IMG/VR virus record: IMGVR_UViG_3300035698_014070
Location: 10,229 to 74,228 of that record
DNA length: 64,000 nucleotides
Direction: 5' to 3' (one strand)
DNA from: a virus
A program made the translations under genes and the position numbers. Of the stretch, positions 7,111 through 42,267 are shown piece after piece (position 1 is the stretch's first letter; every line of letters begins with the position of its first letter). Under the pieces are notes generated by a model. It was not told where the DNA came from. It searched no databases and was given only the letters and a program-made list of their open reading frames with translations.

Positions 7111-7316
7111 TGGAATCATTTGTAATAACTACAGAAGAAACAAACGATATTATACATTCAGCATGTATAGATACATACTTTTGCGCTAATACAATGCAGA
7201 ATGATATAGCAAGACAGATAGAGCATTGTGAGACACACATACCCTGGGATAGGCCTGAGTATTATAATCCATGGAACAGGCTAGCACCGCCACATCTTAA
7301 AGTTAAACGATGGTAA
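7110..7316 (+). CDS. Hypothetical protein
   Basis: TAATG overlap with the upstream gene. Confidence 0.5.
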   Translation: MESFVITTEETNDIIHSACIDTYFCANTMQNDIARQIEHCETHIPWDRPEYYNPWNRLAPPHLKVKRW

Positions 7317-7816
7317 TGAAGAGCTTAATAAAAGAATTACAGCAAGTACTGACAGAATCTACAGGACTGAAGAAAGGCGACACGGTGTACAATGTCTACA
7401 CGTCCAAAGATTTTGGTTCTATAAACGAAGGGCAGTTTTCTATAGTATTCTTTATAACAGAGCACAGTGAGGCTTTACTCTGGGCAAAAGAAAACGTAAG
7501 ATATAACAATGCCGATGCGGTTTACATACGTGAATGCGAATTGCTTACAGACAGAATTGCACAAGTAGAAGATATAATGCCATACATTGAAGAAGAGAGT
7601 GCATTTGAATCAGTGTGGAATGAAGATTATTTTCATGTAGGTACATGGGAAGATAAAGCTAGACATCTAATTAGCAGGATTAAGAGAAACTGGGATGCTA
7701 TAGAGTTTACGCGGCACCACGACGATATAGAAAATATGGTAATGGTATTTGATGTAGATAAGAATGTTAAGTTATTGAAAGAGCCGTATAAGTATAATAG
7801 TTTAAGAGATATATAG
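7310..7816 (+). CDS. SLRDI-tagged protein, possible ADP-ribosyltransferase-like fold
   Basis: Leader MKSLIKELQQVLTE; C-terminal YNSLRDI; VY..T..F / FFITE / WDAIEF / VMVFD pattern loosely resembles ART domains of polyvalent proteins. Confidence 0.6.
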   Translation: MVMKSLIKELQQVLTESTGLKKGDTVYNVYTSKDFGSINEGQFSIVFFITEHSEALLWAKENVRYNNADAVYIRECELLTDRIAQVEDIMPYIEEESAFESVWNEDYFHVGTWEDKARHLISRIKRNWDAIEFTRHHDDIENMVMVFDVDKNVKLLKEPYKYNSLRDI

Positions 7817-7827
7817 GAGAACTTAGT

Positions 7828-8196
7828 ATGAATGATAGTTTTGATTGGCCTAGTAGTAAGACATATGCAGATTTCTGTACAAGATTAAAAGAATTTAATG
7901 ATACAGATTCGTATATTAGCGGAGAACTTAATGTATGGCTTGGTGATGTTGATATGACTTTAAAGGTACATGATGGAGCGCATACTGTTTCTTTCTATTC
8001 AGAATTAGGTGCTCGTGAAGTATCAGAAACGAAAGCATCTGTAAAGAAAGATAAGATAAAAGATATGCTTGAACAAATGAAAGAAGGAATTAATATACTT
8101 ATAGACAACATTGATGAAGCAGTTGAAGAAGTAGTTAAACAGAATGCAGCATATAATGAGTGGGATAAAGAGTATACAGAAGAAAGTAAATTGTAA
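7828..8196 (+). CDS. Hypothetical protein
   Basis: AGGAG SD; coupled to the portal gene. Confidence 0.6.
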   Translation: MNDSFDWPSSKTYADFCTRLKEFNDTDSYISGELNVWLGDVDMTLKVHDGAHTVSFYSELGAREVSETKASVKKDKIKDMLEQMKEGINILIDNIDEAVEEVVKQNAAYNEWDKEYTEESKL

Positions 8197-9956
8197 TGCA
8201 GAATCCGCTGAATTTAATTGCTAAGATCTTCAAGAAACCTGGTTCTGTACCAGCTGCCGATTTGATTTCAGTAATGAGAGATCTGCAGAATAATCTTGCG
8301 CAGATGCAGACACCAGATAATAAGACTAAGATGTCTAAAGAAGATCTTAGTAAGATATTATTGATGGGTTCACCTTCCACTTCAATGGATGATACTGTAT
8401 TCAATAGCATGGTTATAAACTATGAGCGCAGATCTGTTTATAAAGAATTAGATTTAAGCTTATCCCACTGGATGATGTCATCTGCTCTCGAATGCTACAG
8501 CGATTACGCCACCGTATATTCGCCTATACATGATTCTACAGTCTGGTGTACAGGTGATACAAAGTATGTTTCTAAGATAACAAACATGTTAGATCAGATA
8601 GGAGTAGAAGAGAAGATATTTGATTGGGCATGGACAATTGCTGCATATGGAGATTTGTTTGTAGAGTTAGTAGCAGATCCATCGCTTGGTATTATAAACA
8701 TAATGGATGATGACCATCCTATTAATGTATCTAGACTTGATAGAAATGGAGTATTAAACGGATTCTTTAGAACACCATTAGGAGAAGTAGGGCAGGAAGT
8801 AACGGCACAATTATTGCCACCATGGAAGTTTGTGCACTTTAGATTGTTATCAACTAAAAGAAAGAGACCATTGTACGGTGATCCTAATTTCACAGAGTAT
8901 AGAACTATGCACTTATTGTCTCCTGATGCTAGAAGAATATCAACAGCATACGGAACAAGCGTATTGATGAACGCGTTGCCTATATATAAACGTTTACGTA
9001 TGGCTGAAGATAGTCTGTTACTTACACGTTTAACTCGCGGTATTAAACGTTACATATATAAGGTCAAGGTAGATGGCTCTAATATAGATTCTATTTCAGC
9101 CATTATTGATGGTTATAAATCATTGTTGAAGACGGCTAGAGCGATAAACAGCAGTTCTTCTAGTCCATACTTTGAAGAGCGGTATGACCCAATGGGTTCA
9201 TTAGAAGATTTAATTGTGCCAGTGTGGGATAATGTGAATGATTTAGAAGTAGAAGAAATTGGTGGTGATGCAGATATACGATGGATTGTGGATATAGAGG
9301 AACTTCGCAATCAATTAGCTTCAGCATTACGTACTCCTTTATCTTTGTTAGGTGGATTTGTAGATGAGGCAACTGGTGCTTTAGGCAGTTCATCTATAGA
9401 GAAGCTAGATATGCGGTTTGCTAGATCAGCTCGTCGTCTTCAGCGTGCTTTGATTGTTGGTATAACTAGAATGGCACAAATAGATTTAGCATATCAAGGG
9501 CTGGATCCAGATACAAAATTGTTTGATATACATATGCCTGAAACATCTACTGCAGAAGAAGAGCAATTAAGAGAGTCATTAGATACAGCAATAGATGTGG
9601 TTGATAAAGTATTAATGACGTACGAGTCTGTGTTTGGTAAAGACTTGAATAAAGCAAAGCTGTTAGATTATTTAAATCAGAAGTTTCTGAAACTCAGTGA
9701 TTTGAACTTAACTGATTATGTAACAGCGTATGAAGGAAGTGATAGAGATAAGCAATTGAGTTTGATTGATGATGCTAAAGACGAGTTAGTGCATAATAAG
9801 GGTAGGCTTGCTAGAACAGCTAAGTCATTAGATTTTAAAGCACTAACAGAAACAAAAGAAGGTAAAGCTTTGTGGGAATTGAATAACCCAGATCGTGCAA
9901 GTATTAAGATAAAGATAAACGCTTCTAAGAAAAGAACTAAAGGTTCAAAGAAATGA
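8196..9956 (+). CDS. Portal protein, T4 gp20-like
   Basis: YGDLFVEL, FVHFR, YGTSVL...YKRLRMAEDSLLLTRLTR..RYIYKV, LASALRTP, DMRFAR motifs. Confidence 0.9.
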   Translation: MQNPLNLIAKIFKKPGSVPAADLISVMRDLQNNLAQMQTPDNKTKMSKEDLSKILLMGSPSTSMDDTVFNSMVINYERRSVYKELDLSLSHWMMSSALECYSDYATVYSPIHDSTVWCTGDTKYVSKITNMLDQIGVEEKIFDWAWTIAAYGDLFVELVADPSLGIINIMDDDHPINVSRLDRNGVLNGFFRTPLGEVGQEVTAQLLPPWKFVHFRLLSTKRKRPLYGDPNFTEYRTMHLLSPDARRISTAYGTSVLMNALPIYKRLRMAEDSLLLTRLTRGIKRYIYKVKVDGSNIDSISAIIDGYKSLLKTARAINSSSSSPYFEERYDPMGSLEDLIVPVWDNVNDLEVEEIGGDADIRWIVDIEELRNQLASALRTPLSLLGGFVDEATGALGSSSIEKLDMRFARSARRLQRALIVGITRMAQIDLAYQGLDPDTKLFDIHMPETSTAEEEQLRESLDTAIDVVDKVLMTYESVFGKDLNKAKLLDYLNQKFLKLSDLNLTDYVTAYEGSDRDKQLSLIDDAKDELVHNKGRLARTAKSLDFKALTETKEGKALWELNNPDRASIKIKINASKKRTKGSKK

Positions 9957-10234
9957 AAGAGCTAATAGAACAATTAATAAATGTATTAGAATCAAAATAT
10001 GGAACAGGCGATGTTGTAGTATTTACTTTAAAAAATTTACATAGCTCTGCTTATGCGGGTACTAAAATGAAAGAGCATGATGGTAAAAAATGTACAATAG
10101 TTAAATATTTACATACAGATTATGATTTTAATGTTTCATTCTATGATATAGAATTTGATGATGGATATACTCTAAGTAACGCAGGTGATTACATGTTAAA
10201 GCCTTATGTAAATCCTAGTTTGAGAGATATATAA
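9953..10234 (+). CDS. SLRDI-tagged small protein, SH3/KOW-like
   Basis: Leader MKELIEQLINVLE; GDVVVF...GKKCTIV...YDIEFDDG; ends NPSLRDI. Confidence 0.7.
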   Translation: MKELIEQLINVLESKYGTGDVVVFTLKNLHSSAYAGTKMKEHDGKKCTIVKYLHTDYDFNVSFYDIEFDDGYTLSNAGDYMLKPYVNPSLRDI

Positions 10235-10509
10235 TGTCAGATGATAAGTTAGCACAGGATATACAGGATATTATACTAGGAAAGCGTGTGCTAACATCAG
10301 AGAGTGATCAAGTATATGACCAACCTATAATACGTAAAGAGAATACAAGTGACCAAGTAAATGAAGATATGTCTTTTGGAGAAATGTTAGAACAAGTTTG
10401 TAATGATAGTGTGCAGCAAAATAAAGAAGATGATAAGATAACTGATGAAATGTGTAATGAGGTTATAAGTAAATGTAACATGAGTCTTATGAAGGATTTA
10501 CTAAAATGA
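10234..10509 (+). CDS. Acidic hypothetical protein, putative head/core component
   Basis: Coupled ORF downstream of the portal. Confidence 0.55.
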   Translation: MSDDKLAQDIQDIILGKRVLTSESDQVYDQPIIRKENTSDQVNEDMSFGEMLEQVCNDSVQQNKEDDKITDEMCNEVISKCNMSLMKDLLK

Positions 10510-10736
10510 GTTTTGAAAATATCTATGGTAGTATTCAGAATGAAATTCTTACAGAGATAAAGGATCAGCTCCTTGTTTCTGTTACGTTACCGATAGATGC
10601 TTTAACAGAATCCGTTGGTGATATTTATGTAAGTGTTTCAGGAAATTGTAATGCTTGGTTACAACAAAATGAGAATAATAAAGATATCTTAGCAGAAGCT
10701 TTATTGAATTTAGCTGATCGTGTAATGAAAGAGTAA
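10506..10736 (+). CDS. Hypothetical protein
   Basis: ATGA overlap. Confidence 0.55.
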   Translation: MSFENIYGSIQNEILTEIKDQLLVSVTLPIDALTESVGDIYVSVSGNCNAWLQQNENNKDILAEALLNLADRVMKE

Positions 10737-11114
10737 ATGGATACATTGTTAGAACAAGTAAATAAAGCGTTTAGAGAAACTAACGAAGCTAGACCAGCTA
10801 ATGCAGCTGTAGTAAAAGCAGAATTAAAGCGCGTATTTATTGACGCGCAATATACGATACGTGATCTTCATGATAGTACTTCTCCAGCATTTGACGCAGT
10901 AGATAATTCTATGAATTTTATTATACCAGTAAGAAATAATAGAAAATATACTGAAGAAGTTTTAGCAGAAGTTGGTTTAGCAGAAGAATATACTGAACTT
11001 ATCTTTAAAAAACAGGTAATAGCGGATCAGCTAAAAGATACAGAAGATTTAGAAATATTCGCAATTAAATTAGATCAAGCAATAAAGAATATGAGTTCGC
11101 TTAGAGATATATAA
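10737..11114 (+). CDS. SLRDI-tagged helical protein
   Basis: Leader MDTLLEQVNKAFRETNE; ends MSSLRDI. Confidence 0.7.
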   Translation: MDTLLEQVNKAFRETNEARPANAAVVKAELKRVFIDAQYTIRDLHDSTSPAFDAVDNSMNFIIPVRNNRKYTEEVLAEVGLAEEYTELIFKKQVIADQLKDTEDLEIFAIKLDQAIKNMSSLRDI

Positions 11115-12487
11115 TGATATCACAGTTATTAGAATTTATAGATAAAGAATTAAACGAAGGACTGAAGTCTGCTCGTCGTACGTATTTAGATAGCGATAAG
11201 ATAGATCAAGCAGAGTTTGATTGGTGTGTATCTGCTGATCCTACATCTCAAAAGAAATACTTAGATTGGATATGCAAACAGTACATTACGCATGATGAAT
11301 TAGATTTAGAAGGTTTTAAAACACTTATTAAAGACTTTTATACATATTCTGAAGATAAGTTAATAGATAATCCTGATATATATACATATAAAACAATAGA
11401 GCAAGTTGCTGATGCTATAACTGCTGCTAAATCTAAAGTAACTAAGAAGAAGAAAAAAGAAAGCGCAATAAAGGGTGCAGCAGTTTCTTTTGAAACAGAT
11501 AAATATGTTGGTTATAATATTTATTCTAATGAAGCGTCAAAGAAGTATGGTGCAGGAGCTCCATGGTGTACTAGATCAGAGGAATCACCATCACATTGGT
11601 TTGACTATAGGTATAATGATAGAAAAAGTTTTATTTATATACTTAATAAGATTAAACCAAAAGATAAGTACGCTCTTGTGTATATAGATAATAAAATACA
11701 TGAATGTTGGGATATTATTAATGATAATATTGGATTTAGTCAAGCATTTGATAATATGCAAAAAGTAGATGATAGTATTACTGATAGTTATATAGAGTTA
11801 TTTAAAGAAGGTATACCTGAATCAGGTGAATTACGTGATCCTAAAGAAACTATTGATAATGAGTATGATTTTTTAACATCTAAAGTAAAACGAATAACAG
11901 ATAAATTGTTTTTACAATTGTCTGGTGTTAAATCAAGATATCTTCTTAAAGATCATGAGATGTACATGATAGATTTGAATAAGAATATGTCTTCAGAAAA
12001 ACTTGCACAGAATATTGTATCACAATTAATTGCTAGTGTTAAAGATGATACGTCTAATACGTTACGCTGGTCGCGTTGGTTAAATGATGATAGTATAAAT
12101 AATATACAAATAGATGATTCTCTTATAAATATAATTGAATCATTTGGTGGTATACATAGATTGAAAACATTAGAAGAAGCAGATAAGTTTCTTGAAAATA
12201 TAATTAGAAAAGTAACTACAGAAATAAATCATGATGATATACGTAATGTAAAATTGTGGTTAGATTTACTTGGCGATATTTTGATGAAGGGTTTTGTGGG
12301 TGTGTGTTATTACAAGACGAAAGCGCCACATCCAAAAGGAGCAGCGTATTATCCAGTGCGTACATCTGATTATACAAAAGCAGATTCATTTGTTGGTGAA
12401 ATTAAAGATAATCCAAAATGGGCTCAAGAAGAGTTCGAATACTTTTTAGATGCTGTAATGAATAAATACAAAATGTTTGAATTATGA
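11114..12487 (+). CDS. Putative virion-internal protein with YG-x-x-x-x-WCT (PcfJ-like) domain
   Basis: Leader MISQLLEFIDKELNE; DPT..KKYLDWI and EASKKYGAGAPWCT motifs, as in large-phage proteins. Confidence 0.6.
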   Translation: MISQLLEFIDKELNEGLKSARRTYLDSDKIDQAEFDWCVSADPTSQKKYLDWICKQYITHDELDLEGFKTLIKDFYTYSEDKLIDNPDIYTYKTIEQVADAITAAKSKVTKKKKKESAIKGAAVSFETDKYVGYNIYSNEASKKYGAGAPWCTRSEESPSHWFDYRYNDRKSFIYILNKIKPKDKYALVYIDNKIHECWDIINDNIGFSQAFDNMQKVDDSITDSYIELFKEGIPESGELRDPKETIDNEYDFLTSKVKRITDKLFLQLSGVKSRYLLKDHEMYMIDLNKNMSSEKLAQNIVSQLIASVKDDTSNTLRWSRWLNDDSINNIQIDDSLINIIESFGGIHRLKTLEEADKFLENIIRKVTTEINHDDIRNVKLWLDLLGDILMKGFVGVCYYKTKAPHPKGAAYYPVRTSDYTKADSFVGEIKDNPKWAQEEFEYFLDAVMNKYKMFEL

Positions 12488-12514
12488 GTATTAATAGAAC
12501 AACTTGAAGAAATA

Positions 12515-12802
12515 ATGCTTACTGAAGAAAGCAGAATAGAGTTACTTGATCAGTGGTTTTCGAAGTATGAACGGTGGACTGATGAAATAGAACGTTTTTC
12601 TAGAAGGTTGATGGATGATTTTTATTGGATGGTGAAAAAACCAGAGCTAGAAATGAATAATGATAAAGAATTAACTAAGGCAGTAAAAGATATACATGAT
12701 ACAGCACAAAAAATTAATTTAAGCACTAATCCTTTATTTGATATGATTCGTAAAACAGAAAAACAGTTTAAACAAAAAGCAGCTTCTTTAAGAGATATAT
12801 AA
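12515..12802 (+). CDS. SLRDI-tagged helical protein (leader LIEQLEEI encoded in frame upstream of the ATG)
   Basis: Ends AASLRDI; 12488-12514 translates in frame to VLIEQLEEI. Confidence 0.65.
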   Translation: MLTEESRIELLDQWFSKYERWTDEIERFSRRLMDDFYWMVKKPELEMNNDKELTKAVKDIHDTAQKINLSTNPLFDMIRKTEKQFKQKAASLRDI

Positions 12803-13179
12803 TGTTAGAATTAATAAACAAACTGTTGGCATATGAACGGCACTTTTCACATAGTCATGGTGACAAGATAGATTTAGCTAAGTCATTGTTTCTTGAGAAT
12901 AAACATGATGAGTGCAGAGATGTGCTTAATACATTTCCTTCACAAGAAGTACTGCTAGGACAGTTGACTGAAAAACTTAAAGGTAAAAGTGTTTATAAGA
13001 CGCTTAAGCTTATTGCAGAAGGCAAGTGCGAAAGTAAGGCAGCTGAGATGAAAGGTCTTTTTAGTTTAGGAACACATATAGCGATAGAGTGTGAAAAAGA
13101 AAATAGTGAGTACGGTTTGTTATTGCCATATGTGTATGAAAAGCTTGGTCAACTTATATTTAATAAAGAAATAGATTAA
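12802..13179 (+). CDS. Hypothetical protein with leader MLELINKLLAYE
   Basis: TAATG overlap. Confidence 0.6.
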   Translation: MLELINKLLAYERHFSHSHGDKIDLAKSLFLENKHDECRDVLNTFPSQEVLLGQLTEKLKGKSVYKTLKLIAEGKCESKAAEMKGLFSLGTHIAIECEKENSEYGLLLPYVYEKLGQLIFNKEID

Positions 13180-13182
13180 TGA

Positions 13183-13959
13183 ATGATAATTTTACAGGAG
13201 TTTACTATGAATAATTTGATGAGTTCACTGATGGAAAGCGCTATGCATGGCGCAAATGATGTGTTCACTGTGCAGAAGTTTCGGTTCAGTGGACAAATCG
13301 TTGATTCTATTTCCTTTAAAGAAAAGGATGTAGCTTTAGAGTTTGCTAGTGATGTGGTTAAGTCTATGCCTTCTTCTAAGTATTTTGTTGAGGTGCATGA
13401 AGTAACAGATGAAGGTGGTTCTAATACGCTTTGGAGTAGTGAAGCTAAAGATCCTGACAAGAAGACGAAGAAGCCTGGTAAGGTGCCGACTAAGACGGAT
13501 GCTGAAGGTGATGGATCAATAACAAATATAAAGGCACCCAACGAGGCTAAGTCTGGTGATAAAAAGGAAAAGAAACCTGGTAAGGTACCAGTGAAGACTG
13601 ATGCAAAAGATGATACAGGTAGTGTGAAGAATATTAAAGCACCGAATGAAGGTGTGTTACCAGATCATGCTGAGCCAACTGATAAGAAGATTCAGGCTAT
13701 GGTTGAAGAAGAAGATACTGAAGAGAAATGCGATGAAGAAAGTGAAGATGATGACGAAGAGAATGTTGATGAAGCAAGTAAAAAGCAAACATTAAGTGAG
13801 TTTACAGAGTATATTAAATCAATATATGGATTTGAAGAAGGAGAATCTGAAGAAGATTTTGATGAAGCGGTTTATGTTGCAATGAAAGAACTGCATGGCG
13901 ACGAAATTTACGATGCATTATTAGATGCGTTTACTGCTGGTAAGAATACTAATGGATAA
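13183..13959 (+). CDS. Acidic, internally repeated putative prohead core protein
   Basis: Two KKPGKVPxKTDA...NIKAPNE repeats; shares a 20-aa motif with 24633..25847. True start probably 13207 (CAGGAG SD). Confidence 0.6.
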   Translation: MIILQEFTMNNLMSSLMESAMHGANDVFTVQKFRFSGQIVDSISFKEKDVALEFASDVVKSMPSSKYFVEVHEVTDEGGSNTLWSSEAKDPDKKTKKPGKVPTKTDAEGDGSITNIKAPNEAKSGDKKEKKPGKVPVKTDAKDDTGSVKNIKAPNEGVLPDHAEPTDKKIQAMVEEEDTEEKCDEESEDDDEENVDEASKKQTLSEFTEYIKSIYGFEEGESEEDFDEAVYVAMKELHGDEIYDALLDAFTAGKNTNG

Positions 13960-14287
13960 GTTAATAGAACAACTTGAGAGAAGTTTAAATGAAGAAGGTG
14001 AATTGAATACACCTGAATCATACTTAATGAAACGAGCATCAGATATTTCAGATAAATTAGATACAATTGAAGATGCGCTTGCAGATATACACAATGATAT
14101 ATATGATATTACGATGGCTTTACCACCAGGTGGACCTACTTATAAAAAATGGGGTAATCAGTTTTACAATTTAAAAATAGAAGCAGGAAATGCTTTTGAA
14201 CATGGAGATAACTTTTTATACCGTTTGAATAAGTTTATAGATAAGTTTATGAGTGAGTACAAAGCTATCACATTGAGAGACATATGA
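13952..14287 (+). CDS. TLRDI-tagged helical protein
   Basis: Start reassigned to ATG 13952: MDKLIEQLERSLNEE; ends AITLRDI. Confidence 0.7.
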   Translation: MDKLIEQLERSLNEEGELNTPESYLMKRASDISDKLDTIEDALADIHNDIYDITMALPPGGPTYKKWGNQFYNLKIEAGNAFEHGDNFLYRLNKFIDKFMSEYKAITLRDI

Positions 14288-14658
14288 AAGAACTATTAGA
14301 AAAGTTAAGTAAAGTGATTAAAGCATCTCTTGATACAGATGCAGAGTATATAGAAGAGTATGTAGACGCTTTAGAAACTGTAATAGATCGGTATACTAAT
14401 GCACAATATAGTATAGAACGTGCGGTAAATGCACTATGTCATGCTGTTGATGGTGTGAAGATAGGGTTAGAAGATCGTAAAGATCAAAAGTCAATTGAGT
14501 TTATTGAAGAGGTTTTTGGTAACATCACTGAGATAGATAACAACAACGCTGATTTGGTTAACAATGAAAGACTTAAAATTATGGTTGAGTCTATAGATGG
14601 TATTAGAAAAGCTTTAGCTGATATGGTTTTAAGTAAGAAAAGTTTACGGGATATATAA
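14284..14658 (+). CDS. SLRDI-tagged helical protein
   Basis: Leader MKELLEKLSKVI; ends KKSLRDI. Confidence 0.7.
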   Translation: MKELLEKLSKVIKASLDTDAEYIEEYVDALETVIDRYTNAQYSIERAVNALCHAVDGVKIGLEDRKDQKSIEFIEEVFGNITEIDNNNADLVNNERLKIMVESIDGIRKALADMVLSKKSLRDI

Positions 14659-14787
14659 ATGCATAATTTATTTGTAATTAGAACTTGTTCGGCTCCAAGT
14701 TCTCCTTTCGCAGGCCGGCTGTTCACAAAGCAGTCGGTCTGTTTACATAATGAAAACAGTATGTTATAATACATAAAGGAATAAACA

Positions 14788-15190: not shown

Positions 15191-16624
15191 ATGGGACGAA
15201 TAGATGATAGAGAAATTTGGCTTGTTGCAGATCATGCAGATGATAAAGAAAAGATTACTGTTATAGATGAATATGGTAACTTATTACAAGAAATTGTAAC
15301 CACGGCGGCCCAAGATAATATCTCGTGGGATTCTACTGATAAGACGCTTTGGCTAAACAAAGAACACGTTGCAGGAACGGACGATTATGTAAGTAATATT
15401 TATTCATCAGCGCAGGTACTTTCTAAAACCACCATTGATGCTGCTGACTTTGATCTGGAGGATGTTTGTCATGATCCGTCTGATGATTCTCTGTGGATGA
15501 TAAGTGATAACGCAGGAAATCTAGTTTTGCAGAACCGAAGCAAAGCTGCTCCTAATACGATTATTGCGTCTCACAACATTTCAACAACGATAGAAAGCCC
15601 ACAAGGGGTCGCGAGTGATCCGACTGATTTCACATTGTGGATATCAGATAATATTCCTTTTGCGGGGCGGGTTGGCTTAATTCATCATGTCGATAAAGGA
15701 GGTAATATTTTCACGGCGGATACGATTACAATCGTTGAGGCTTTGCACTCTTCTTTAACGGGGCAAGCAGGATTGTTGCAAGGAATTTGCGTGGATGATC
15801 GGGACGGAACACTTTGGTTTAGCGTCAGAAATACTTATATTTATCATCTCACTCGTACTGGTACTTTGATAAAGGTTGTGGCTACGCCTCTTACTGACCG
15901 AGGAGCTGCCAGTGGTCCAACAGGTTTATGCTTATGTCCATGGGGGACACGAGCATACGCGCTTCGTCCTATTGCTTCTTATCAATTATATGATGATCAA
16001 GAGAATGGGCATGTCACTGCAGAGGTTGGAACTAGTGCAACGTTGGAAGGAGGGGATGACACAGACGATAAGAGCGTGGTTGGACCCATTAGCAAGGGGT
16101 TTAATCTGAATGGTATTGATGATTATGTGGATTTTAATGATGTAGCTCTTACGGATAATACATGGTCAATCTCCTGTTGGCTGAACATTCCATCTCTTGC
16201 ATCGGCTATGGTACTTTTGGGTGATGCTGATAATGAAGATTGGATTAGGTTTAACTCAACTAGTGAGATTTTTTTCAAGTTTGCCAATATAAGTCAGACT
16301 CTTATGAATACTAGCATCGCTATTCCTATTGGTGAATGGTTCCACTTAGTGATTACAAGATGGGGAATCACTTATACGTCGGTTTATGTGAATGGAACGT
16401 TACAAGAAACAAAAACAATTGGTAGTGCTGCTCCATTTACACCAGAATTTCTTGGTCAAAAAGATGATAATGGTTGGTTGGCAGGCAAAGTGTCTAATTT
16501 AATGTTATTCAATTATACTCTTAATATAGTAGATATTGCTTATCTTTACAATGCCGGGGCAGGACAGGACATCATTACAGAAGAAGAAACTGCTGATCGT
16601 ACAAGTAACAATGCTTGGTGGTAG
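15191..16624 (+). CDS. Beta-propeller plus LamG/concanavalin-like protein
   Basis: Repeated D..D.TLW blades; C-terminal FNLNGIDDYV, WSISCW, GEWFHLVIT, VYVNG, LYNAG LamG motifs. Confidence 0.7.
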   Translation: MGRIDDREIWLVADHADDKEKITVIDEYGNLLQEIVTTAAQDNISWDSTDKTLWLNKEHVAGTDDYVSNIYSSAQVLSKTTIDAADFDLEDVCHDPSDDSLWMISDNAGNLVLQNRSKAAPNTIIASHNISTTIESPQGVASDPTDFTLWISDNIPFAGRVGLIHHVDKGGNIFTADTITIVEALHSSLTGQAGLLQGICVDDRDGTLWFSVRNTYIYHLTRTGTLIKVVATPLTDRGAASGPTGLCLCPWGTRAYALRPIASYQLYDDQENGHVTAEVGTSATLEGGDDTDDKSVVGPISKGFNLNGIDDYVDFNDVALTDNTWSISCWLNIPSLASAMVLLGDADNEDWIRFNSTSEIFFKFANISQTLMNTSIAIPIGEWFHLVITRWGITYTSVYVNGTLQETKTIGSAAPFTPEFLGQKDDNGWLAGKVSNLMLFNYTLNIVDIAYLYNAGAGQDIITEEETADRTSNNAWW

Positions 16625-16625
16625 G

Positions 16626-20340: not shown

Positions 20341-20349
20341 TGGTGAGAT

Positions 20350-27466: not shown

Positions 27467-27484
27467 TATTAAGAGGTGATTATT

Positions 27485-31720: not shown

Positions 31721-31732
31721 GAAAGCAGTAAA

Positions 31733-31820
31733 ATGTCTATAGGTACATACAAAAGAACAGTTGAACATAAGAAAAGAATTTGATATATTAAGAGATAAAA
31801 GTTCTTTAAGAGATATTTAA
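31733..31820 (+). pseudogene. Deletion remnant: NUMOD3-like N-terminus plus orphan SLRDI tail
   Basis: MSIGTYKRTVEHKKRI* (31733-31783); overlapping other frame reads ...FDILRDKSSLRDI* (to 31820). Confidence 0.45.
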
Positions 31821-32455: not shown

Positions 32456-32475
32456 ATCTTTAAGAGATATTTAAT

Positions 32476-33849
32476 ATGATAAATATACATGAACTATTAC
32501 AACGAGTATTTGAAGCAGATATTGTACAACCAGAGCGTCCTCAACCAATAGCTCCACCTGCTCCTAATAGAACTACACCACCTGAGCGTAGAAAAAGTCC
32601 TATTAAACCTATACCTGGTAAACATCCAAAACCTAAAGGTAATAAAGATGTAGAGCTGTTTTTAAAGAAACGCGGTATTGTAAATGAGATGGCTTTTGAT
32701 CCAGGTGCGTTTAAAGATATTACTGATCCAAGCAAACGAGCGTGGATAGAAACCGGTACAGAAGATCTTAGTGAGATATTACCAGATGCAACAGATTCGC
32801 AACAAAGTTATCTTGAGATGGTTACATCAAAATCATATATAGAAATGTTAAATCGTGTTGAACGTTATACTGGCTTAAATGTGGATGATATTGATGTTCC
32901 TCAATTAATTGGTTTATTGTTTCAATCAATGAATACTGCTGCAGAAATAGAAAAAAACAATATTAATGCTTTAGAAAATATTGCGTTAATGAGCGTATTA
33001 AGTTTAGACGAATTTTCAATGGTGAAAGATTTATATGATAACGATGAAGTAAAATTTGATATAGAATTAATGAGTAGAGATAAACCGCTTGATATTGACT
33101 TAATGCAGCAGCATGACGAAGAACAAAATCCAGATGATAATGGATTGACAGACAATGAAGAAACAAATCTAGAATTGGCAGATGAGCTTATTAGTTCTGA
33201 TAACACTAAAATGAAAAGACGTTTAGCAGATCTTTTAATACAAGGAAATGCTGTAAGTAAATTGTATCTATTTAATGTAGTTCGTGATAAATTGAATGCT
33301 ATAGACGAAAGACTTCCTGCTTTATATGGAATAGCTGCTACAATGACGCAGCTTGGTTATTGGGTAACTCCATTTGGTATTGAAGAAATGTCAGCATCAG
33401 CAGAAGAAATGACAGGTGGAGCAGAAGAAGTAATTCCTAGTGGAGATATATACGTAATTAAAGCACGTGGACAAATATTTCCAATGTTAGTGCATGAAAT
33501 TGTTAAAGGAATATATGAATACATTTCTTTAAACAATGATATTGGTACAGCCAGTGGTGGGTTACGTCAAGAAACCGAAGATATTATTGTTGGACCAGAG
33601 ATTGCGAAGACATTAAAATCTTATGTTCCACTTGATCAGCAAGAGTTATTGCCATTAGTTCATAAATTATTTTTAGAACTATCACAATCTGATATTAAGA
33701 ATGTACTCGCAAAAAATTCACAAGGTAAAAGTACTATGGATGAATTGCTTAAACAGGCTGAAGAGCAGTGGGATGAATATAATAAAGAAGAAAATGAGTA
33801 TGAAGATGAAGGTGAAGAACCCGAAGAGTTTGGAGAACAAGGTGAATAA
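32476..33849 (+). CDS. Putative head-associated hypothetical protein
   Basis: Leader ..HELLQRVFE; Pro-rich linker; RRLADLLIQG and IKARG..FPMLVHEIVKG. Confidence 0.6.
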   Translation: MINIHELLQRVFEADIVQPERPQPIAPPAPNRTTPPERRKSPIKPIPGKHPKPKGNKDVELFLKKRGIVNEMAFDPGAFKDITDPSKRAWIETGTEDLSEILPDATDSQQSYLEMVTSKSYIEMLNRVERYTGLNVDDIDVPQLIGLLFQSMNTAAEIEKNNINALENIALMSVLSLDEFSMVKDLYDNDEVKFDIELMSRDKPLDIDLMQQHDEEQNPDDNGLTDNEETNLELADELISSDNTKMKRRLADLLIQGNAVSKLYLFNVVRDKLNAIDERLPALYGIAATMTQLGYWVTPFGIEEMSASAEEMTGGAEEVIPSGDIYVIKARGQIFPMLVHEIVKGIYEYISLNNDIGTASGGLRQETEDIIVGPEIAKTLKSYVPLDQQELLPLVHKLFLELSQSDIKNVLAKNSQGKSTMDELLKQAEEQWDEYNKEENEYEDEGEEPEEFGEQGE

Positions 33850-34727
33850 TGAGTGTATATAGTATTGCAAATAATGTTGTTGAAAATATGAAAGTAAAAG
33901 AAGCAACTAGTATGAGTAACATTGCATATGTAGCAGGCGGATTTGGAACAGTTAAAACAGCTTTAAAAATATTATCACAAATGAAAGATGATTGGGGAGT
34001 TGAAGTATTAGAAGGAGAAGAAGAAACATATAATGTAAAGATAGAAGATTCTTTAATAATATCAGTACCTAAAGATTTGTGGGAAGAATTTGCTATAGAA
34101 ATGTTTGGTAATAAAATCAATGTAAAAAATATGAATTTAGCAAAATATTTAGAAGAATCTATAGTAGATTGTAATAAAGATTTACTTCGTAAAGTAAAAG
34201 CATCTGTAAAAAAATTGTATAAACAAAAACCGTATTCTATTATGGAGAGAAACATAAAAATATGGAGAGCTTTATTTGGAGCAACTCGATTTATTACAAC
34301 TCCAAAAACATGTATACCTGTAGAATCAAAAATTAAATCTTCTAAGTATCTTTGCAAAACTATTGAAAGTGCTTATGGTAAAGACAGAGGTATGCTTGAA
34401 ATGCTTTTATCCGCACTGTCTAAAGGGAAAAGTTTAATAGATTTTGATGTGTTTGAAAATTATGATAAAATAACTGGTACTGTTATTTATATTCGTAAAG
34501 ATAATACTGTTTTTACATATGAATCTTCTATAGATTTAAATGGAAAGTTAACTGAAACAATTAGAGTAACTGATAAAGACGTGCTTGAATCATTAAAAGA
34601 ATCTAGATTTGGAAGACGAAATAAAAACATTGTTTCACCAAAGGGAGATTTTTTTACAAATAAAGAATTTAAAAACTTTAAAGCAATTATACAGGATGTA
34701 AATGATGAAACAAATAACAGAAGCTAA
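33849..34727 (+). CDS. Hypothetical protein
   Basis: Long coupled ORF. Confidence 0.6.
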   Translation: MSVYSIANNVVENMKVKEATSMSNIAYVAGGFGTVKTALKILSQMKDDWGVEVLEGEEETYNVKIEDSLIISVPKDLWEEFAIEMFGNKINVKNMNLAKYLEESIVDCNKDLLRKVKASVKKLYKQKPYSIMERNIKIWRALFGATRFITTPKTCIPVESKIKSSKYLCKTIESAYGKDRGMLEMLLSALSKGKSLIDFDVFENYDKITGTVIYIRKDNTVFTYESSIDLNGKLTETIRVTDKDVLESLKESRFGRRNKNIVSPKGDFFTNKEFKNFKAIIQDVNDETNNRS

Positions 34728-35145: not shown

Positions 35146-35146
35146 C

Positions 35147-36679: not shown

Positions 36680-36688
36680 AGATATATT

Positions 36689-37618
36689 GTGGATTATGAA
36701 TTATATAAAAAATTGTTTTACACAGTAAATGAGCAGACATCTGATTCTAATTATGAACCTTCTCGTGATTTTTTAGATGGAGTAGATAAAATATTTTTGT
36801 CTTTTTCAGAAGAAGAGTGCGAATGGATAGAACAAAACCGCTACTTTTTTTCTGCTAGTAAAATGATTGCTGGCAGTAAAAAAAATGAAGATGGAACATA
36901 TGATTCTAATGTAGATTTAGATTTTAGCAATAAAAAATTTAAAGATGGGAAGTTACCGTTTAAATTAAATAAAGTAAATGGCAGTTTTAAAGTTTTTGAT
37001 TGTGGATTAACAACATTAGAAGGTTGTCCTAAAATAGTTACTAAATTGTTTAGTTGTTTTAAAAATAATCTTACATCATTAAAAGGAGGTCCTGAAGAAG
37101 TTGGAATGCACTATTCTTGCATGGCAAATAAACTTAAATCTTTAGAGTTTCTTCCTAAAAAACTTAGGAGTTTAGATTGTTCAATTAATAAATTACGTTC
37201 ATTAGATAATTTTGTTCCTAATGAATTATCTTCTTTTAGTTGTTTTAAAAATAATCTTACATCATTAAAAGGTAGCCCAACAAAAATAATTAGTTATTTT
37301 GATTGCAGTAGCAATAAACTAACTTCATTAGAAGATGGACCTAGATACGTAGGTGGGGGTTATATTTGTGCAAGAAATAAATTAATATCTTTAAAAGGAG
37401 CTCCTAAATCTATTACTGTAAGTGAAGGGTTTAGTAATTTTAATTGTTCGCATAATGAGTTAACATCATTAGAATTTGCTCCACAATACGTATCTGGAAC
37501 TTTTGATTGTAGTAAAAATAAACTAACTTCTTATGAATTTATACCTAAAAAAGTAAAAAAAGTTATTAGTAAAGGTAATCCAATAACATACGAACAATGG
37601 ATAAAACAAAATGAGTAA
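36689..37618 (+). CDS. Leucine-rich repeat protein (LTSLxGxPxxV type)
   Basis: About 9 divergent 20-26 aa repeats F.C..N.LTSL.G.P. Confidence 0.85.
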   Translation: MDYELYKKLFYTVNEQTSDSNYEPSRDFLDGVDKIFLSFSEEECEWIEQNRYFFSASKMIAGSKKNEDGTYDSNVDLDFSNKKFKDGKLPFKLNKVNGSFKVFDCGLTTLEGCPKIVTKLFSCFKNNLTSLKGGPEEVGMHYSCMANKLKSLEFLPKKLRSLDCSINKLRSLDNFVPNELSSFSCFKNNLTSLKGSPTKIISYFDCSSNKLTSLEDGPRYVGGGYICARNKLISLKGAPKSITVSEGFSNFNCSHNELTSLEFAPQYVSGTFDCSKNKLTSYEFIPKKVKKVISKGNPITYEQWIKQNE

Positions 37619-37979: not shown

Positions 37980-37988
37980 AATTAATAA

Positions 37989-40439
37989 ATGTTTAATGAA
38001 TTATACGAAAATTTAGCTTCTGTTTTAGAGAATAATGGGCATGAGTACTCTAATGTTCAGATAACAATAACAGGTGAACTTTCTAAAAAAATGCTTGATT
38101 ATGGTAAAAGTATACCTGATGAAGAAATTTATACTGATGAGAATGATCCATCGTATGGTAGAGAAAAAGATACACATGTTACTGTGCGGTATGGATTAAC
38201 AACAGACAATCCATCTGAATTACAAAAAGCTTTTACAGATTTTGGCATAATAAAATTAAAAATGAATAATATATCTGTTTTTGAGACAGATGATTATGCT
38301 ATAATTAAAATAGATATTGATAGCAATGATTTACATAAAGCGAATGAATTAGTTGGTGAAACAGAAGATGTACCTGGTGAAACATATAAAGAGTACAAAC
38401 CGCATGCTACAATTGCTTATGTAAAGAAAGGTGCTGGAAAGAAATACATTGATAATAAAACATTTAATGGTGAAGAAATAACTGTTAATACAATTGAATT
38501 GAATGATAGGAACGATACTAAACACACGATAAATTTATCTCGAGATATGTCTGCAGAATGTAAGTTGCAGAAGATCCATAAGGCGACTGTGAGTGAAAAT
38601 GCAGACATTAACGAATTAGATTGGAAAAAGACAGCTAAGGTTGCGGCTGCTACAACAGCAGTAGGATTGGTTGGATTGCTAGGCCAGCAAAAAGCATATA
38701 GAAATTATGATAAAGGACTTATAGCGAACCAATCTGCTTCTGCTGTTACTAAATCTGCTGAGCAACCTGAAGTTCAGCAGAAACTGGCAAAGGAAACTAA
38801 CGTAAATGAAATAGATATAGATAAGATTGCACAAATAGAGTCATCTAATAATCCTACCGCTGTTAATAAAAGAACAGGTACACGCGGGTTATGCCAGTTT
38901 ATGGAGCCAACTTGGAATGATGTTATTAAAAAGATGAAAGTTGATTGGACATGGGAAGATGCTTTTGATCCTAATAAAAACAGAACAGCAGCTGAGTTTT
39001 ATATAAACAAAGACATACCACGTATGTTACAATATTATAAGATAGAGGATACAAATGAAACAAGACTTGCGTCTTATAACTGGGGTATTGGTAATGTGAA
39101 AAAAGCAGTTCGTAAGTATGGAAAAGATTGGATTAATCACATTCCTACAGAAACTCGTAATTATATTCAGAAGTATAATGCATTACAAGAAGTAATTCAG
39201 CATGATGGTGGAAACTTTCAGCACTTTTTTGTTGATGCAAAAGGTTACGCAATACAAGTAGCAAGTCATGTAGAGTATGTAAAGAAAAAACTTGGTACTA
39301 ATTATGCTGATGAAAAAGCAGTTAATAAGTATATGAAAAAGAATAAACTGATACGTTTAGGGCAGACTGAAGATGTTTTGTTTTTCGTATCAGTTGCCAG
39401 TAAAGTAACAGATGTTCAAATAAAAGTATTAAGAAAGCTTCTTCGTTCTGGTACAACATTGTATTACGATATATTTAAAGGAACTAAACGTATTAATTCT
39501 GGTTCAGGATTTAAAGAGTTTTTAGAAGATCTTGAATATTATAAAATGTATAAGCCTAAAACAAACGAATCTACTATTGATTTTCCTAGAGAAGATTTAC
39601 CTACGGAGATATGGACAAAAGAGAATGGTGAATATGTTTTAAGAGATGATGTGTATAATAAGATCGTGAAAACACTGGCACAATATCCTAACGTTGATTT
39701 AAATAAATTAGCTACAACGATGCACATAACTGGTTCAATCGGGACTAATCAGCATGATGATGATTGTGATTTGGATGTACATATATTACCATTAGAAGGT
39801 AAAGCAGATAATCATTTACAAAAAGATGTATTTAAGTGGTTTAATGAAAACAGAGACAAAATTGATGGATACGTTGGTGAACATCCTATTGAAGTATATA
39901 TTCAGTTAGATCCACAGCAAGAATTGTTTGCAGATGCGGCGTATGATGTTGGTAATAAGAGATGGTTAAAGGGTCCTAAGAAAGCTGCTTCGTCTTATAA
40001 TCCGTATGAAGAGTTTAAAGAATTGTTAGTAGATGTAGTAAGTGATGCAGAAGAAGCTGATAAGGTATTGGGTGAACTTAAGCGAGATACAATAGATTAT
40101 ACAACTATTGTTCGCGCGATGCGCTACCTAAGTACAGGTGATAAAGAACACTTACACGATATGCTATTATCAAAGTCGGTTGAGATTGATGCAGATATAC
40201 GTGCGTTGATTAAACAAAAAGGAGAGTGGACAAACGCTCGCCATATGTCATCGCAAGCCACACCCGAAGATGCCTTAAAAGATGTAGACATTGCTAAAAG
40301 ATGGAAAGATGAAAATGCAAAATTTAAATTTATGAATCGCTACAATTACGTCAAGCTTATAAAAGATCTTGAAGATATGATTAAAGATGAAGAGCTTTCT
40401 GATAGAGAAATAAATCTTATACAAAGAACTTTAACATGA
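37989..40439 (+). CDS. Polyvalent protein: 2H phosphoesterase (Acb1/gp57B-like) + SLT lytic transglycosylase + nucleotidyltransferase-like domain
   Basis: THVTVRYG / PHATIAY (two HxT); QIESS..P.A..GLCQFM..TW, SYNWG, ETRNY; ITGS...DLDVHI...PIEVY. Confidence 0.75.
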   Translation: MFNELYENLASVLENNGHEYSNVQITITGELSKKMLDYGKSIPDEEIYTDENDPSYGREKDTHVTVRYGLTTDNPSELQKAFTDFGIIKLKMNNISVFETDDYAIIKIDIDSNDLHKANELVGETEDVPGETYKEYKPHATIAYVKKGAGKKYIDNKTFNGEEITVNTIELNDRNDTKHTINLSRDMSAECKLQKIHKATVSENADINELDWKKTAKVAAATTAVGLVGLLGQQKAYRNYDKGLIANQSASAVTKSAEQPEVQQKLAKETNVNEIDIDKIAQIESSNNPTAVNKRTGTRGLCQFMEPTWNDVIKKMKVDWTWEDAFDPNKNRTAAEFYINKDIPRMLQYYKIEDTNETRLASYNWGIGNVKKAVRKYGKDWINHIPTETRNYIQKYNALQEVIQHDGGNFQHFFVDAKGYAIQVASHVEYVKKKLGTNYADEKAVNKYMKKNKLIRLGQTEDVLFFVSVASKVTDVQIKVLRKLLRSGTTLYYDIFKGTKRINSGSGFKEFLEDLEYYKMYKPKTNESTIDFPREDLPTEIWTKENGEYVLRDDVYNKIVKTLAQYPNVDLNKLATTMHITGSIGTNQHDDDCDLDVHILPLEGKADNHLQKDVFKWFNENRDKIDGYVGEHPIEVYIQLDPQQELFADAAYDVGNKRWLKGPKKAASSYNPYEEFKELLVDVVSDAEEADKVLGELKRDTIDYTTIVRAMRYLSTGDKEHLHDMLLSKSVEIDADIRALIKQKGEWTNARHMSSQATPEDALKDVDIAKRWKDENAKFKFMNRYNYVKLIKDLEDMIKDEELSDREINLIQRTLT

Positions 40440-40516
40440 AAAAATTAATTGAACAACTTGAAAAATGTGTTACTGAAATAAATCCTATAAGTGAAAAGGT
40501 GAAAATTTATGGATAA
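40436..40516 (+). CDS. 26-aa mini-ORF consisting of leader plus duplicated tail
   Basis: Manual translation MKKLIEQLEKCVTEINPISEKVKIYG*; overlaps both neighbours. Confidence 0.45.
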   Translation: MKKLIEQLEKCVTEINPISEKVKIYG

Positions 40517-41159
40517 GTTAGTTGAATATCTTATTAAAGAAGTAGAGAAGCAAGCTTCAGATGAAGAGTTTTTAGATAAAGTTGTTGATGGAACATACAC
40601 ATTAAACTCTGATGGCAGTTATGATGTAGTTGGTAATGTAAAAGTGTTTAAAACGCAATCAACTTTTATTTTTGTAAAATTTAGAAAAGTAAGTGGAAAT
40701 TTTATTTGTAGTTATAATGACTTAACAACATTAGAAGGCGCACCTAAAGAAGTAGGTGGAAATTTTACTTGTAACAACAATATCTTAACAACATTAGAAG
40801 GCGCACCTAAAGAAGTAGGTGGAAATTTTACTTGTAGTTATAATGACTTAACAACATTAGAAGGCGCACCTAAAGAAGTAGGTGGAAATTTTACTTGTAG
40901 TTATAATGACTTAACAACATTAGAAGGCGCACCTAAAGAAGTAGGTGGAAATTTTACTTGTAAAAACAATTACTTAACAACATTAGAAGGCGCACCTAAA
41001 GAAGTAGGTGGAAATTTTACTTGTAAAAACAATGACTTAACAACATTAGAAGGATTAAATTATGTTAAAGGTAAAATTATTTATAATAATAATCCTATGA
41101 ATTGTGAAGAAGAAATAAAAAAGCACAAACAAAGAAAAGCATCACTTAGAGATATATAA
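40509..41159 (+). CDS. SLRDI-tagged leucine-rich repeat protein
   Basis: Leader MDKLVEYLIKEVE; 22-aa repeats; ends KASLRDI. Confidence 0.85.
   Translation: MDKLVEYLIKEVEKQASDEEFLDKVVDGTYTLNSDGSYDVVGNVKVFKTQSTFIFVKFRKVSGNFICSYNDLTTLEGAPKEVGGNFTCNNNILTTLEGAPKEVGGNFTCSYNDLTTLEGAPKEVGGNFTCSYNDLTTLEGAPKEVGGNFTCKNNYLTTLEGAPKEVGGNFTCKNNDLTTLEGLNYVKGKIIYNNNPMNCEEEIKKHKQRKASLRDI
40694..41053 (+). repeat. Near-perfect 66-bp coding tandem repeat, about 5.5 copies
   Basis: Unit GGAAATTTTACTTGT-(12 variable nt)-TTAACAACATTAGAAGGCGCACCTAAAGAAGTAGGT. Confidence 0.95.
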
Positions 41160-41160
41160 A

Positions 41161-41631
41161 ATGTCTAAAATGATTCCTAATAGATCTATTGCAGCGTTTA
41201 GAAATTTTAATGACGTAAGCGTAAATAATTTCGGCTTTGAAGTAGATTTGTATATACCTAATAATGTATACGCAGATGTTGAAGATAATGATGCGTACTC
41301 TAAACCTGGAGATTACGAATACGATCATTATACTGCTATGGTATTTATAGATTGGTCGCCAAACATATATAGATTACGAAATATTGGTATGTATACAGAA
41401 GGTGAGTTACCTATACTAGCTCGTTTTAAAACAACAGCGACTAATGATACAGGCGTGTCTGAAAGTGTTGATATTGTAAGGCATAGTTATATTAAGGTAC
41501 CAACACAGTACGTGCCTGATAAAACGAGTGTCACTGATGAGTTTGATATAGTAGATGTATTGACATTTAATATGCATGATGCGGCGTTAGCTAAACAGTA
41601 CAAGTTGGCGCCAAGGAGAACGTTAGACTAA
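41161..41631 (+). CDS. Possible head-closure/neck protein
   Basis: Position before tail-completion and sheath genes; beta-rich. No firm motif. Confidence 0.4.
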   Translation: MSKMIPNRSIAAFRNFNDVSVNNFGFEVDLYIPNNVYADVEDNDAYSKPGDYEYDHYTAMVFIDWSPNIYRLRNIGMYTEGELPILARFKTTATNDTGVSESVDIVRHSYIKVPTQYVPDKTSVTDEFDIVDVLTFNMHDAALAKQYKLAPRRTLD

Positions 41632-41834
41632 TGCAGAAAGTAACAAACTTAACGAATGAAAGTATACATTTATATATTTCAGGAATGGTTAAGCTAATTC
41701 TTGGTCCACATGAGAGTATAACTGTGGATATTAGTGGTATAATGAATTTGCCTGAAATACGCTCTAAGATTTTGATTGGTGAAAACTTGACAGAAGTAAA
41801 TCCAGTAAGTGGAAAGATGCCTTTGTATGGATAA
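41631..41834 (+). CDS. Small hypothetical protein
   Basis: KVTNLT...I.L......LILGPHES pattern; coupled ORF. Confidence 0.55.
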   Translation: MQKVTNLTNESIHLYISGMVKLILGPHESITVDISGIMNLPEIRSKILIGENLTEVNPVSGKMPLYG

Positions 41835-42267
41835 GTTAATTAAACAATTAATCGATGAAATGGCAAAATCCAGTAAAAAAACATTAGCTCAAATGGATTT
41901 AAAAGAAATTCCAGAGATAAGTAAAGTGAAACATTTAAATCAATTAGCTGTGTGGGCAGCTAGACTTGGTTATCCAGAGCTTATTCATCTTGCATTAGAT
42001 AATGGAGCTAAGTTAGAACAAAAAGATATTGAACAATTAGCTATGCACGCGCTAAGATATAAATCTATTCCTATGGCTGAAATAGCAGCAGATTTAGGTT
42101 GGGACAAAGATATGGATATTGCTGATGATAGAGCTGGATTAGATTCTGAAAATATTGATTGGCAAATAAAAAAGTGTAAAAATAATAAAACATCAAATAT
42201 TGATTTTTACATATGGTTACGTGATAAATTTAATATAGTACCACTTGGTAGTTTAAGAGATATTTAA
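41827..42267 (+). CDS. SLRDI-tagged ankyrin-repeat-like protein
   Basis: Start reassigned to 41827: MDKLIKQLIDE; LAVWAARLGYPELIHLALDNGA ankyrin-like; ends GSLRDI. Confidence 0.65.
   Translation: MDKLIKQLIDEMAKSSKKTLAQMDLKEIPEISKVKHLNQLAVWAARLGYPELIHLALDNGAKLEQKDIEQLAMHALRYKSIPMAEIAADLGWDKDMDIADDRAGLDSENIDWQIKKCKNNKTSNIDFYIWLRDKFNIVPLGSLRDI

Follow-up and report, generated by a model that had tools for sequence, protein, structure and literature searches.

The DNA analyzed here is a window of 64,000 nucleotides, the last 64 kb of a single viral contig of 74,228 bases (IMG/VR record IMGVR_UViG_3300035698_014070), in which a series of otherwise dissimilar genes begin with a similar short amphipathic peptide, hereafter called the leader. 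All plausible genes of the window lie on the plus strand. They include a gp20-type portal gene (8196-9956; PF07230, E = 8e-25), a gp23-type capsid protein gene starting at 27476 (PF07068) and a tail sheath gene (42976-44637), and the head module of this uncultivated phage is T4-like. No close relative was found by megablast of the phage collection, the best tblastn matches reached at most 32% identity, and a single-protein scan of IMG/VR gave zero matches. A profile scan retrieved 32 distantly related metagenomic phage loci (given labels of the type L002), which were used for the comparative counts reported below. Within the window, Rfam and tRNA scans gave no hits, and the small leader proteins received no family name from Pfam or PHROGs.

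An earlier note, made from the sequence alone, had listed 13 such N-terminal peptides and proposed them to be cleavable targeting leaders. All 13 were located at true or near-true plus-strand starts of open reading frames (ORFs) between 7316 and 41859, with three genes corrected to an internal methionine (7316 instead of 7310, 13952 instead of 13925, and 41827 instead of 41809). Two of the listed leaders (12488 and 40436) are relics and the remainder stand on genes, and one leader of the same sub-type as that of 37989 had been missed (36689). The revised inventory is given below, where genes are named by their first nucleotide, a slash marks the candidate cut, and the evidence is ORF reading or a leave-one-out position-specific scoring matrix (PSSM).

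7316-7357, plus strand: strict leader ending L-T-E/S, on a 166-residue ORF that ends SLRDI (ORF reading, leave-one-out PSSM)
9953-9991, plus strand: strict leader ending V-L-E/S, on a 93-residue ORF that ends SLRDI (ORF reading, PSSM)
10737-10778, plus strand: strict leader ending F-R-E/T, on a 125-residue ORF that ends SLRDI (ORF reading, PSSM)
11114-11158, plus strand: loose leader, one residue longer, ending L-N-E/G, on an untagged 457-residue ORF (PSSM)
12488-12526, plus strand: leader-like peptide lacking a start codon, in an ORF that ends SLRDI (ORF reading)
12802-12837, plus strand: weak leader of a 125-residue core gene with orthologues in 24 loci (fails leave-one-out scoring)
13952-13993, plus strand: strict leader ending L-N-E/E, on a 111-residue ORF that ends TLRDI (ORF reading, PSSM)
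14284-14346, plus strand: strict leader start on a 124-residue ORF that ends SLRDI, with L-L-E at residue 6, followed by a next Glu site at residue 21
32476-32514, plus strand: loose leader ending V-F-E/A, on an untagged 457-residue ORF (PSSM)
36689-36733, plus strand: previously unlisted leader of the 37989 sub-type, on a 309-residue repeat protein with a GTG start (PSSM)
37989-38030, plus strand: loose leader ending V-L-E/N, on an 816-residue three-domain fusion (PSSM)
40436-40477, plus strand: top-scoring leader, on a relic ORF of 26 codons (PSSM)
40509-40541, plus strand: strict leader ending I-K-E/V, on a 216-residue repeat protein that ends SLRDI (ORF reading, PSSM)
41827-41859, plus strand: strict leader ending I-D-E/M, on a 146-residue ORF that ends SLRDI (ORF reading, PSSM)

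The leaders occupy the extreme N-terminus of their ORFs, from residue 1 to residue 11-15. A strict pattern, M-x-x-L-[ILV]-[EKN]-x-[LV], is present in nine copies, eight of which score 6.9-24.4 in the leave-one-out PSSM, where the 99th percentile of 395 internal-methionine peptides is about -2; the strict copy failing this scoring is 12802. The leaders of 11114, 12488, 32476, 37989 and 36689 fall in the top 0.5% of the background and fit the pattern only loosely. The strict motif occurs at 8-9 of the 41 gene starts within 7300-42300 as compared to 0/60 outside (p = 2e-4 to 5e-4). The same distribution was obtained with an untrained rule that takes no sequence information from the leader peptides (helical hydrophobic moment ≥ 0.5 over residues 2-13, no proline or glycine, and a hydrophobic-x-E ending at residue 7-16), which selected 10 of the 41 genes at 7.3-42.3 kb and none of the 60 other contig genes (p = 6e-5); equal hits in non-structural genes, named in the earlier note as the outcome that would speak against targeting leaders, were therefore not seen. 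Carrier genes are all found at 7.3-42.3 kb, in the portal-to-sheath interval, and the mean hydrophobic moment of their leaders is 0.60 vs. 0.28 ± 0.13 for the other 97 N-termini (p = 5e-8). Since the leucine codons differ among the copies (TTA, CTA, CTT, TTG), selection on the leader acts at the peptide level, and a DNA-level explanation of the likeness was ruled out by the variation of serine, leucine and isoleucine codons between copies.

Apart from 36689 and 40509 (E = 3e-30), the mature parts of the leader proteins are unrelated in an all-against-all BLASTP, which also revealed, among the bodies, one 19-residue peptide common to 13207 and 24633. The 40509 gene contains eight tandem units of 63 nt (40619-41116) that encode leucine-rich-like repeats of 21 residues; related repeats lie at 36967-37398 in its paralogue 36689, and homologues of the repeat protein are multi-copy in L012. 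A single-sequence AlphaFold2 model of the 9953 protein placed a helix at residues 3-16, with a mean predicted local distance difference test score (pLDDT) of only 39, and was discarded as too poor.

A glutamate at residue 11-15 ends the leader in 11 of the 13 copies, and the third residue before the cut (P3) is mostly L, I, V or F. Two candidate cut sites are in fact present in the leaders, an L-I-E at residue 6 and the second one at residue 11-15. The head-module features that bear on this junction are the following.

24633-25847, plus strand: scaffold-like protein, acidic and basic, directly upstream of the protease gene, with an amphipathic start ending I-V-E/N
25865-27466, plus strand: S77 prohead protease of 533 residues with a long C-terminal extension (PF03420, phrog_207)
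27701-27709, plus strand: M-F-E codons of the capsid protein, residues 76-78, predicted maturation cut before A-T (conservation)
31820-31849, plus strand: ten-residue hydrophobic leader ending I-I-E/A-T, on a conserved head-module protein (orthologue alignment)
33849-33902, plus strand: 18-residue N-terminal stretch ending K-E/A-T-S (family alignment)

The presence of a gp21-like (S77) protease, claimed in the earlier note, was confirmed by PF03420 (28.8 bits, cut-off 27) and phrog_207 (E = 2.5e-27). Its His and Ser blocks, G-x-A-E-H-P and G-V-S-T-R-A-E-G, are invariant across 13 homologues, and the catalytic domain is ~30% identical to that of T4. The protease's own start ends in I-I-E at residue 10, and behind the catalytic domain, at residues 206-227, hydrophobic-x-E sites are clustered. 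Metagenomic homologues of the protease number more than 100, on contigs of up to 141 kb and with catalytic domains 50-60% identical; P0002, on a 109-kb contig, is among the closest (40% identity). Two further homologues, P0013 and P0107, are on contigs deposited as metagenome-assembled genomes of Candidatus Thorarchaeota. These bins may contain phage contamination, because the SLT murein transglycosylase encoded in the window points to a bacterial host.

In the capsid protein, ~30 relatives keep a site of the form [LIM]-x-E/[AT]-T, just ahead of the segment with the highest conservation. In the sole significant local alignment to T4 gp23, which is offset by 13 residues, the T4 cut L-T-E65/A falls on window residue 78. 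From the conservation of this site we infer that the protease of the clade is specific for hydrophobic-x-E. The same E/A-T junction ends the leader of the 31820 protein, where the glutamate is invariant in 16 orthologues and the preceding residues vary both in sequence and in length. An AlphaFold model of this protein, built on the orthologue alignment, reached a mean pLDDT of 82, with residues 1-14 below 50 and unpacked on the body; Foldseek of the model against the PDB gave no match. The 31820-32455 family occurs in 23 of the 32 loci and has an invariant C-x-C ... C-K-H, a SWIM-like zinc motif. The 33849-34727 family has a variable N-terminus followed by E/A-T-T-M-S-A-I-S-F-L-P, and owing to this resemblance to the mature capsid-protein N-terminus the 33849 protein may be a vertex paralogue like T4 gp24. 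The 12802 family was considered as a further conserved Glu junction and ruled out, its glutamate not being conserved in the orthologues.

Within the scaffold-like protein, an acidic linker contains S-L-R-D-I (25035-25049), and the last 18 residues of the protein (25791-25844) begin M-K-E-L-I-E-D-F, which is leader-like. This C-terminus was rejected as a conserved leader copy, since it does not consistently match the leader found in the same genome; an amphipathic L-L-x-x-L-L helix forms the end of many orthologues. Two other observations concern the surroundings of these genes. The gp23-like capsid gene is split (27476-30074): homologues align to 27497-28417 and then, in a different frame, to ~29481-30056, and a 315-residue ORF with a TnsA-like endonuclease domain (28513-29460) lies between the two parts. 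No Rfam intron model matched at the split, and in L005 a homologous segment lies in frame within the capsid ORF. Between the portal-side leader cluster and the scaffold and protease genes sits a block of five large ORFs (15191-23982; 477, 656, 113, 499 and 1210 residues) with a G+C content of 0.41 vs. 0.30-0.35 elsewhere, one of which has a Laminin_G_3/concanavalin-like domain.

Rearrangements of a single leader protein across the related loci offer a second view of the junction. The 816-residue protein of 37989 consists of a 2H phosphoesterase, an SLT transglycosylase and a nucleotidyltransferase, and contains the following feature.

39561-39584, plus strand: internal T-N-E/S-T-I-D-F junction of the 816-residue protein, aligned with the leader ends of its L002 and L032 counterparts

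In L002 and L032 the nucleotidyltransferase stands alone, with its own amphipathic leader ending E/S-S-I-D-Y-P; this end aligns with the internal T-N-E/S-T-I-D-F-P of the window, and the residues preceding the latter are still leader-like. In L003 the 2H domain and a segment homologous to the 37989 leader are part of the protease ORF, where they come immediately after the catalytic domain and follow a conserved L-E/S site common to all proteases of the clade. A 2H domain fused to the protease necessarily enters the prohead, and this therefore supports its free-standing, leader-bearing form as a head-internal protein. The genes compared are 37989-40439 in the window, L003:9986-12685, L002:19043-20008 and L032:11542-12510. 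The 2H domain has weak matches to the Acb1 and 2'-5' RNA ligase families, both sub-cut-off. The 2H phosphoesterase and nucleotidyltransferase domains are candidate packaged effectors.

The leader is not restricted to the window. Across the 32 loci, leader-like N-termini were found at 46 of 659 gene starts as compared to 35 of 2802 internal methionines (odds ratio 5.9, p = 2e-14), and orthologues of 11114 in six related loci retain a leader-like start. Each phage has its own leader consensus: about ten genes of L012 share one repeated leader, and four to five genes of L023 share another. In the repeat-protein family, leaders have 4.3-6.6 identities out of 10 to the leaders of unrelated proteins of the same genome vs. 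2.2-2.8 out of 10 to those of homologues in other genomes. A leader identity that tracks the genome would be expected of a label read by a genome-specific receptor, and gene conversion would give the same pattern.

Many of the leader proteins carry a second mark at the opposite end. The pentapeptide [ST]-L-R-D-I closes eight complete genes of the region, all eight with a leader, as compared to a leader in 5 of the 33 untagged genes (p = 1e-5), and the variation of its Ser and Leu codons indicates that the tag, too, is selected as a peptide. It is absent from all 32 related loci searched. The only tagged protein with homologues in these loci is 40509, and those homologues lack the tag, so that SLRDI is a lineage-specific addition to an older leader system. 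The literature search for SLRDI returned nothing relevant.

Several copies of leader and tag stand outside intact genes. The 40436 leader is considered a relic because its 26-codon ORF overlaps the next gene. The 12488 copy lacks a usable start codon, its first codon being the GTA next to the in-frame TGA of 11114; here (12473-12526) a leader-like peptide and an ORF of 104 codons ending SLRDI continue in frame after the stop, an ATG overlaps the TGA in another frame, and a normal M-V-L-I-E-Q-L start would result from the loss of one base. This junction may reflect read-through, an indel or a sequencing error. Just 3' of the 370-residue gene 30608-31720, a 25-codon frame without a start codon (31743-31820) ends in S-L-R-D-I-stop and resembles the 3' remnant of a tagged gene that has been lost. 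Gene 31820-32455 stops with TAA, and past an A-rich run, G-AAAAAA-G-AAAA-G, the +1 frame reads S-L-R-D-I-stop (32434-32474), which might be explained by a sequencing error in the homopolymer, by decay of a tag or by programmed frameshifting. Finally, a direct repeat of 70 nt (71% identity; 40472-40541 and 41790-41859) covers the last 12 codons of the upstream small ORF and the first 11 of the leader gene, which points to a duplicated segment with an exchanged body. Taken together, the relics, the SLRDI fragments and the 70-nt repeat indicate that genes of this region have been duplicated, truncated and recombined at their conserved ends.

In light of these results we favor, with a probability of about 0.6, the reading of the leaders as T4-type capsid-targeting or prohead-core propeptides trimmed by the S77 protease. 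The N-terminal amphipathic helix of 10-15 residues, hydrophobic at positions 4, 5, 8 and 12, would dock the new protein onto the assembling prohead core before shell closure, its partner being the scaffold-like protein, the protease extension or the capsid-protein propeptide. The S77 protease would then cut after the Glu of hydrophobic-x-Glu, thus freeing the mature protein within the head. Large leader proteins, such as the 2H phosphoesterase/transglycosylase/nucleotidyltransferase fusion, would be ejected with the DNA, and some of the small helical leader proteins near the portal gene may instead belong to the core or scaffold and be broken down, as T4 gp67 and gp68 are. These steps of docking, cleavage and ejection we infer from comparison. 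The proposal of cleavable targeting leaders made in the earlier note is thus supported in part, and gains the capsid E/A-T site, the invariant Glu of the 31820 family, the junction alignments and the genome-tracking leaders. As a claim about cargo labels it has to be narrowed, since some of the small proteins may be prohead-core parts and two of the listed leaders are relics.

A number of observations weigh against trimmed targeting leaders. The 37989 leader aligns with an internal segment in L003, where it could be a linker or part of a fold. A Glu at residues 12-16 is missing from the 14284 protein, the leader of 12802 fails the profile and has a Glu that its orthologues do not keep, and P3 is not hydrophobic at some junctions (T-N-E in 37989, A-Y-E in 12802). 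Short acidic amphipathic helices are widespread, and the likeness to T4 N-termini is too short for statistics; the known propeptides of T4 have hydrophobic moments of 0.23-0.45, under the cut-off of 0.5 used here. The specificity of the protease is, moreover, deduced from sequence.

The lack of a good cut site where expected in 14284 and 12802 would be explained if the helix were a permanent, uncleaved docking or oligomerization element, bundling the proteins into an inner core or binding portal or shell, and retained in the virion. The regularity of the amphipathic helix agrees with this, as do the similar helices at one or both ends of the scaffold-like protein and many of its orthologues, and the N-terminal packaging signal of P1 DarB, for which cleavage is not reported (PMC9024508). 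We nonetheless consider a permanent helix unlikely, given that 11 of 13 leaders end in Glu with a mostly hydrophobic P3, that the Glu of the 31820 family is invariant and followed by A-T as at the capsid-protein site, and that the AlphaFold model leaves residues 1-14 of 31820 detached from the fold. The common ends might also be mainly footprints of gene turnover, where leader with flanking DNA and the SLRDI-stop-ATG junction serve as homology patches for the duplication and swap of cassettes, so that recombination or gene conversion rather than selection by a receptor keeps them alike. The relics at 40436, 12488 and 31743-31820, the out-of-frame SLRDI after 32455, the 71% identical repeat and the tracking of genome rather than protein family by the leaders are all in line with such a process. 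It appears quite unlikely as the main cause, however, as the leaders have little DNA identity to one another and use different Leu and Ser codons, the amphipathic periodicity and the terminal Glu are kept despite residue differences, and the feature is clade-wide and present on conserved single-copy genes; turnover would account for the spread of the labels, and not for their retention solely in the head module.

The leader codons are A/T-rich and many of the genes are translationally coupled through TAATG or ATGA overlaps, which would also suit a conserved mRNA or translation-start feature of late genes, i.e., a 5' coding region that is A-rich and unstructured, the peptide itself having no function. 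This explanation is highly improbable: synonymous codons vary and hydrophobic positions are fixed, the signal is a protein-level helical periodicity, and the sheath, tube, baseplate, portal and capsid-protein genes, of the same strand and module type, have no leader. Trimmed targeting or core propeptides remain the reading adopted here.

The earlier note had further joined leader and SLRDI into a two-ended address. The co-occurrence was borne out (8/8 vs. 5/33), as a statistical association and nothing beyond it. According to this model, the clade-wide leader would dock on the core and be clipped after Glu, the lineage-specific SLRDI carboxyl end would bind a second site, and the pair would mark small, fast-evolving proteins for packaging and injection beside pre-made effectors (2H phosphoesterase, nucleotidyltransferase, repeat proteins), with the gene ends doubling as recombination joints of the cassettes. 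The second site might be the shell interior, as for encapsulin cargo peptides and scaffold C-termini, or a partner mimicked by the internal SLRDI of the scaffold-like protein. We regard the model as a whole as possible, if doubtful. Should the leaders act like those of T4, one could read from sequence which proteins are packaged and possibly injected throughout this uncultivated clade, candidate anti-defence enzymes among them, and the leader peptide would be a handle for loading foreign proteins into such capsids.

The closest known counterpart is the capsid targeting sequence (CTS) of T4. The background invoked in the earlier note, that gp21 cuts after Glu and thereby removes a targeting sequence, holds in the literature, with a length of 10-19 residues (PMC9026906). 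Residues 4 and 7 of the CTS serve targeting and residues 8 and 10 processing, the T4 protein Alt is processed at both ends (PMC9026906), and the CTS carries foreign proteins into heads (PMC9026906; PMC3012670). As in T4, the leaders described here stand at the very N-terminus of proteins that are otherwise mostly unrelated, have early hydrophobic residues that would serve targeting and mostly a hydrophobic-x-Glu end, are accompanied by an S77 protease that is here the predicted processing enzyme, and belong to genes that are hypervariable among related phages. They differ in being longer (mostly 13-15 residues) and more amphipathic, with two candidate Glu sites, and in the number of carrier genes, ~12-14 here vs. 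3-4 in T4; the phage is, besides, only a distant relative of T4 and is known from sequence alone. Most of the small carriers here also end in the SLRDI pentapeptide. We know of no shared C-terminal pentapeptide in T4, and the pairing of the leader with a C-terminal tag is what makes the present system unusual.

The resemblance extends to the propeptides of the T4 prohead core and shell (gp67, gp68, gp22, gp21, gp24 and Alt), whose starts resemble the leader motif: in the T4 genome gp67 begins M-x-x-L-I-E and Alt M-E-L-I-T-E, and the cuts fall at L-R-E10 in gp24, I-A-E9 in gp22 and L-I-E9 in gp21. The T4 core-protein genes directly follow the portal gene, as does the 9953-14658 cluster here, and the T4 order of portal, small core proteins, protease, scaffold and capsid protein resembles that of the window. 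On account of this gene order and of these starts, the small helical leader proteins of the 9953-14658 cluster may belong to the core, as do gp67 and gp68, and not be cargo. The T4 propeptides have no single repeated consensus, in contrast to the leaders, and the likeness is too short to establish homology.

Our literature search found such leader systems described in T4, P1 and the phiKZ group, and none beyond these. The ejection proteins of phiKZ, 201phi2-1 and SPN3US are likewise cut after Glu by a gp21-type protease, and include paralogues with identical first 15 residues for which a targeting role was proposed; their propeptides are mostly >100 residues long, with a small P3 (A-, S- or G-x-E; PMC5694885, PMC10052503). 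The leaders, with 11-15 residues and a mostly hydrophobic P3, were thus not assigned to this long-propeptide class of giant phages. In P1, the N-terminal ≤30 residues of DarB, an anti-defence cargo protein, are enough to bring a reporter into a myovirus head, and the capsid protein is cut after Glu; the Dar proteins differ in having no common consensus, and cleavage of their signal is not reported (PMC9024508). Encapsulin cargo-loading peptides, too, are short, portable and able to send unrelated cargo inside an HK97-fold shell, but they are C-terminal, retained and bind the shell directly. This class was rejected for the leader, which is N-terminal, and is relevant, if at all, to the C-terminal SLRDI tag. 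Compared with these systems, the leaders remain nearest to T4, and their presence in such a distant clade suggests that the T4 hydrophobic-x-Glu rule and its short targeting helix may be far older and more widespread than the T-even phages.

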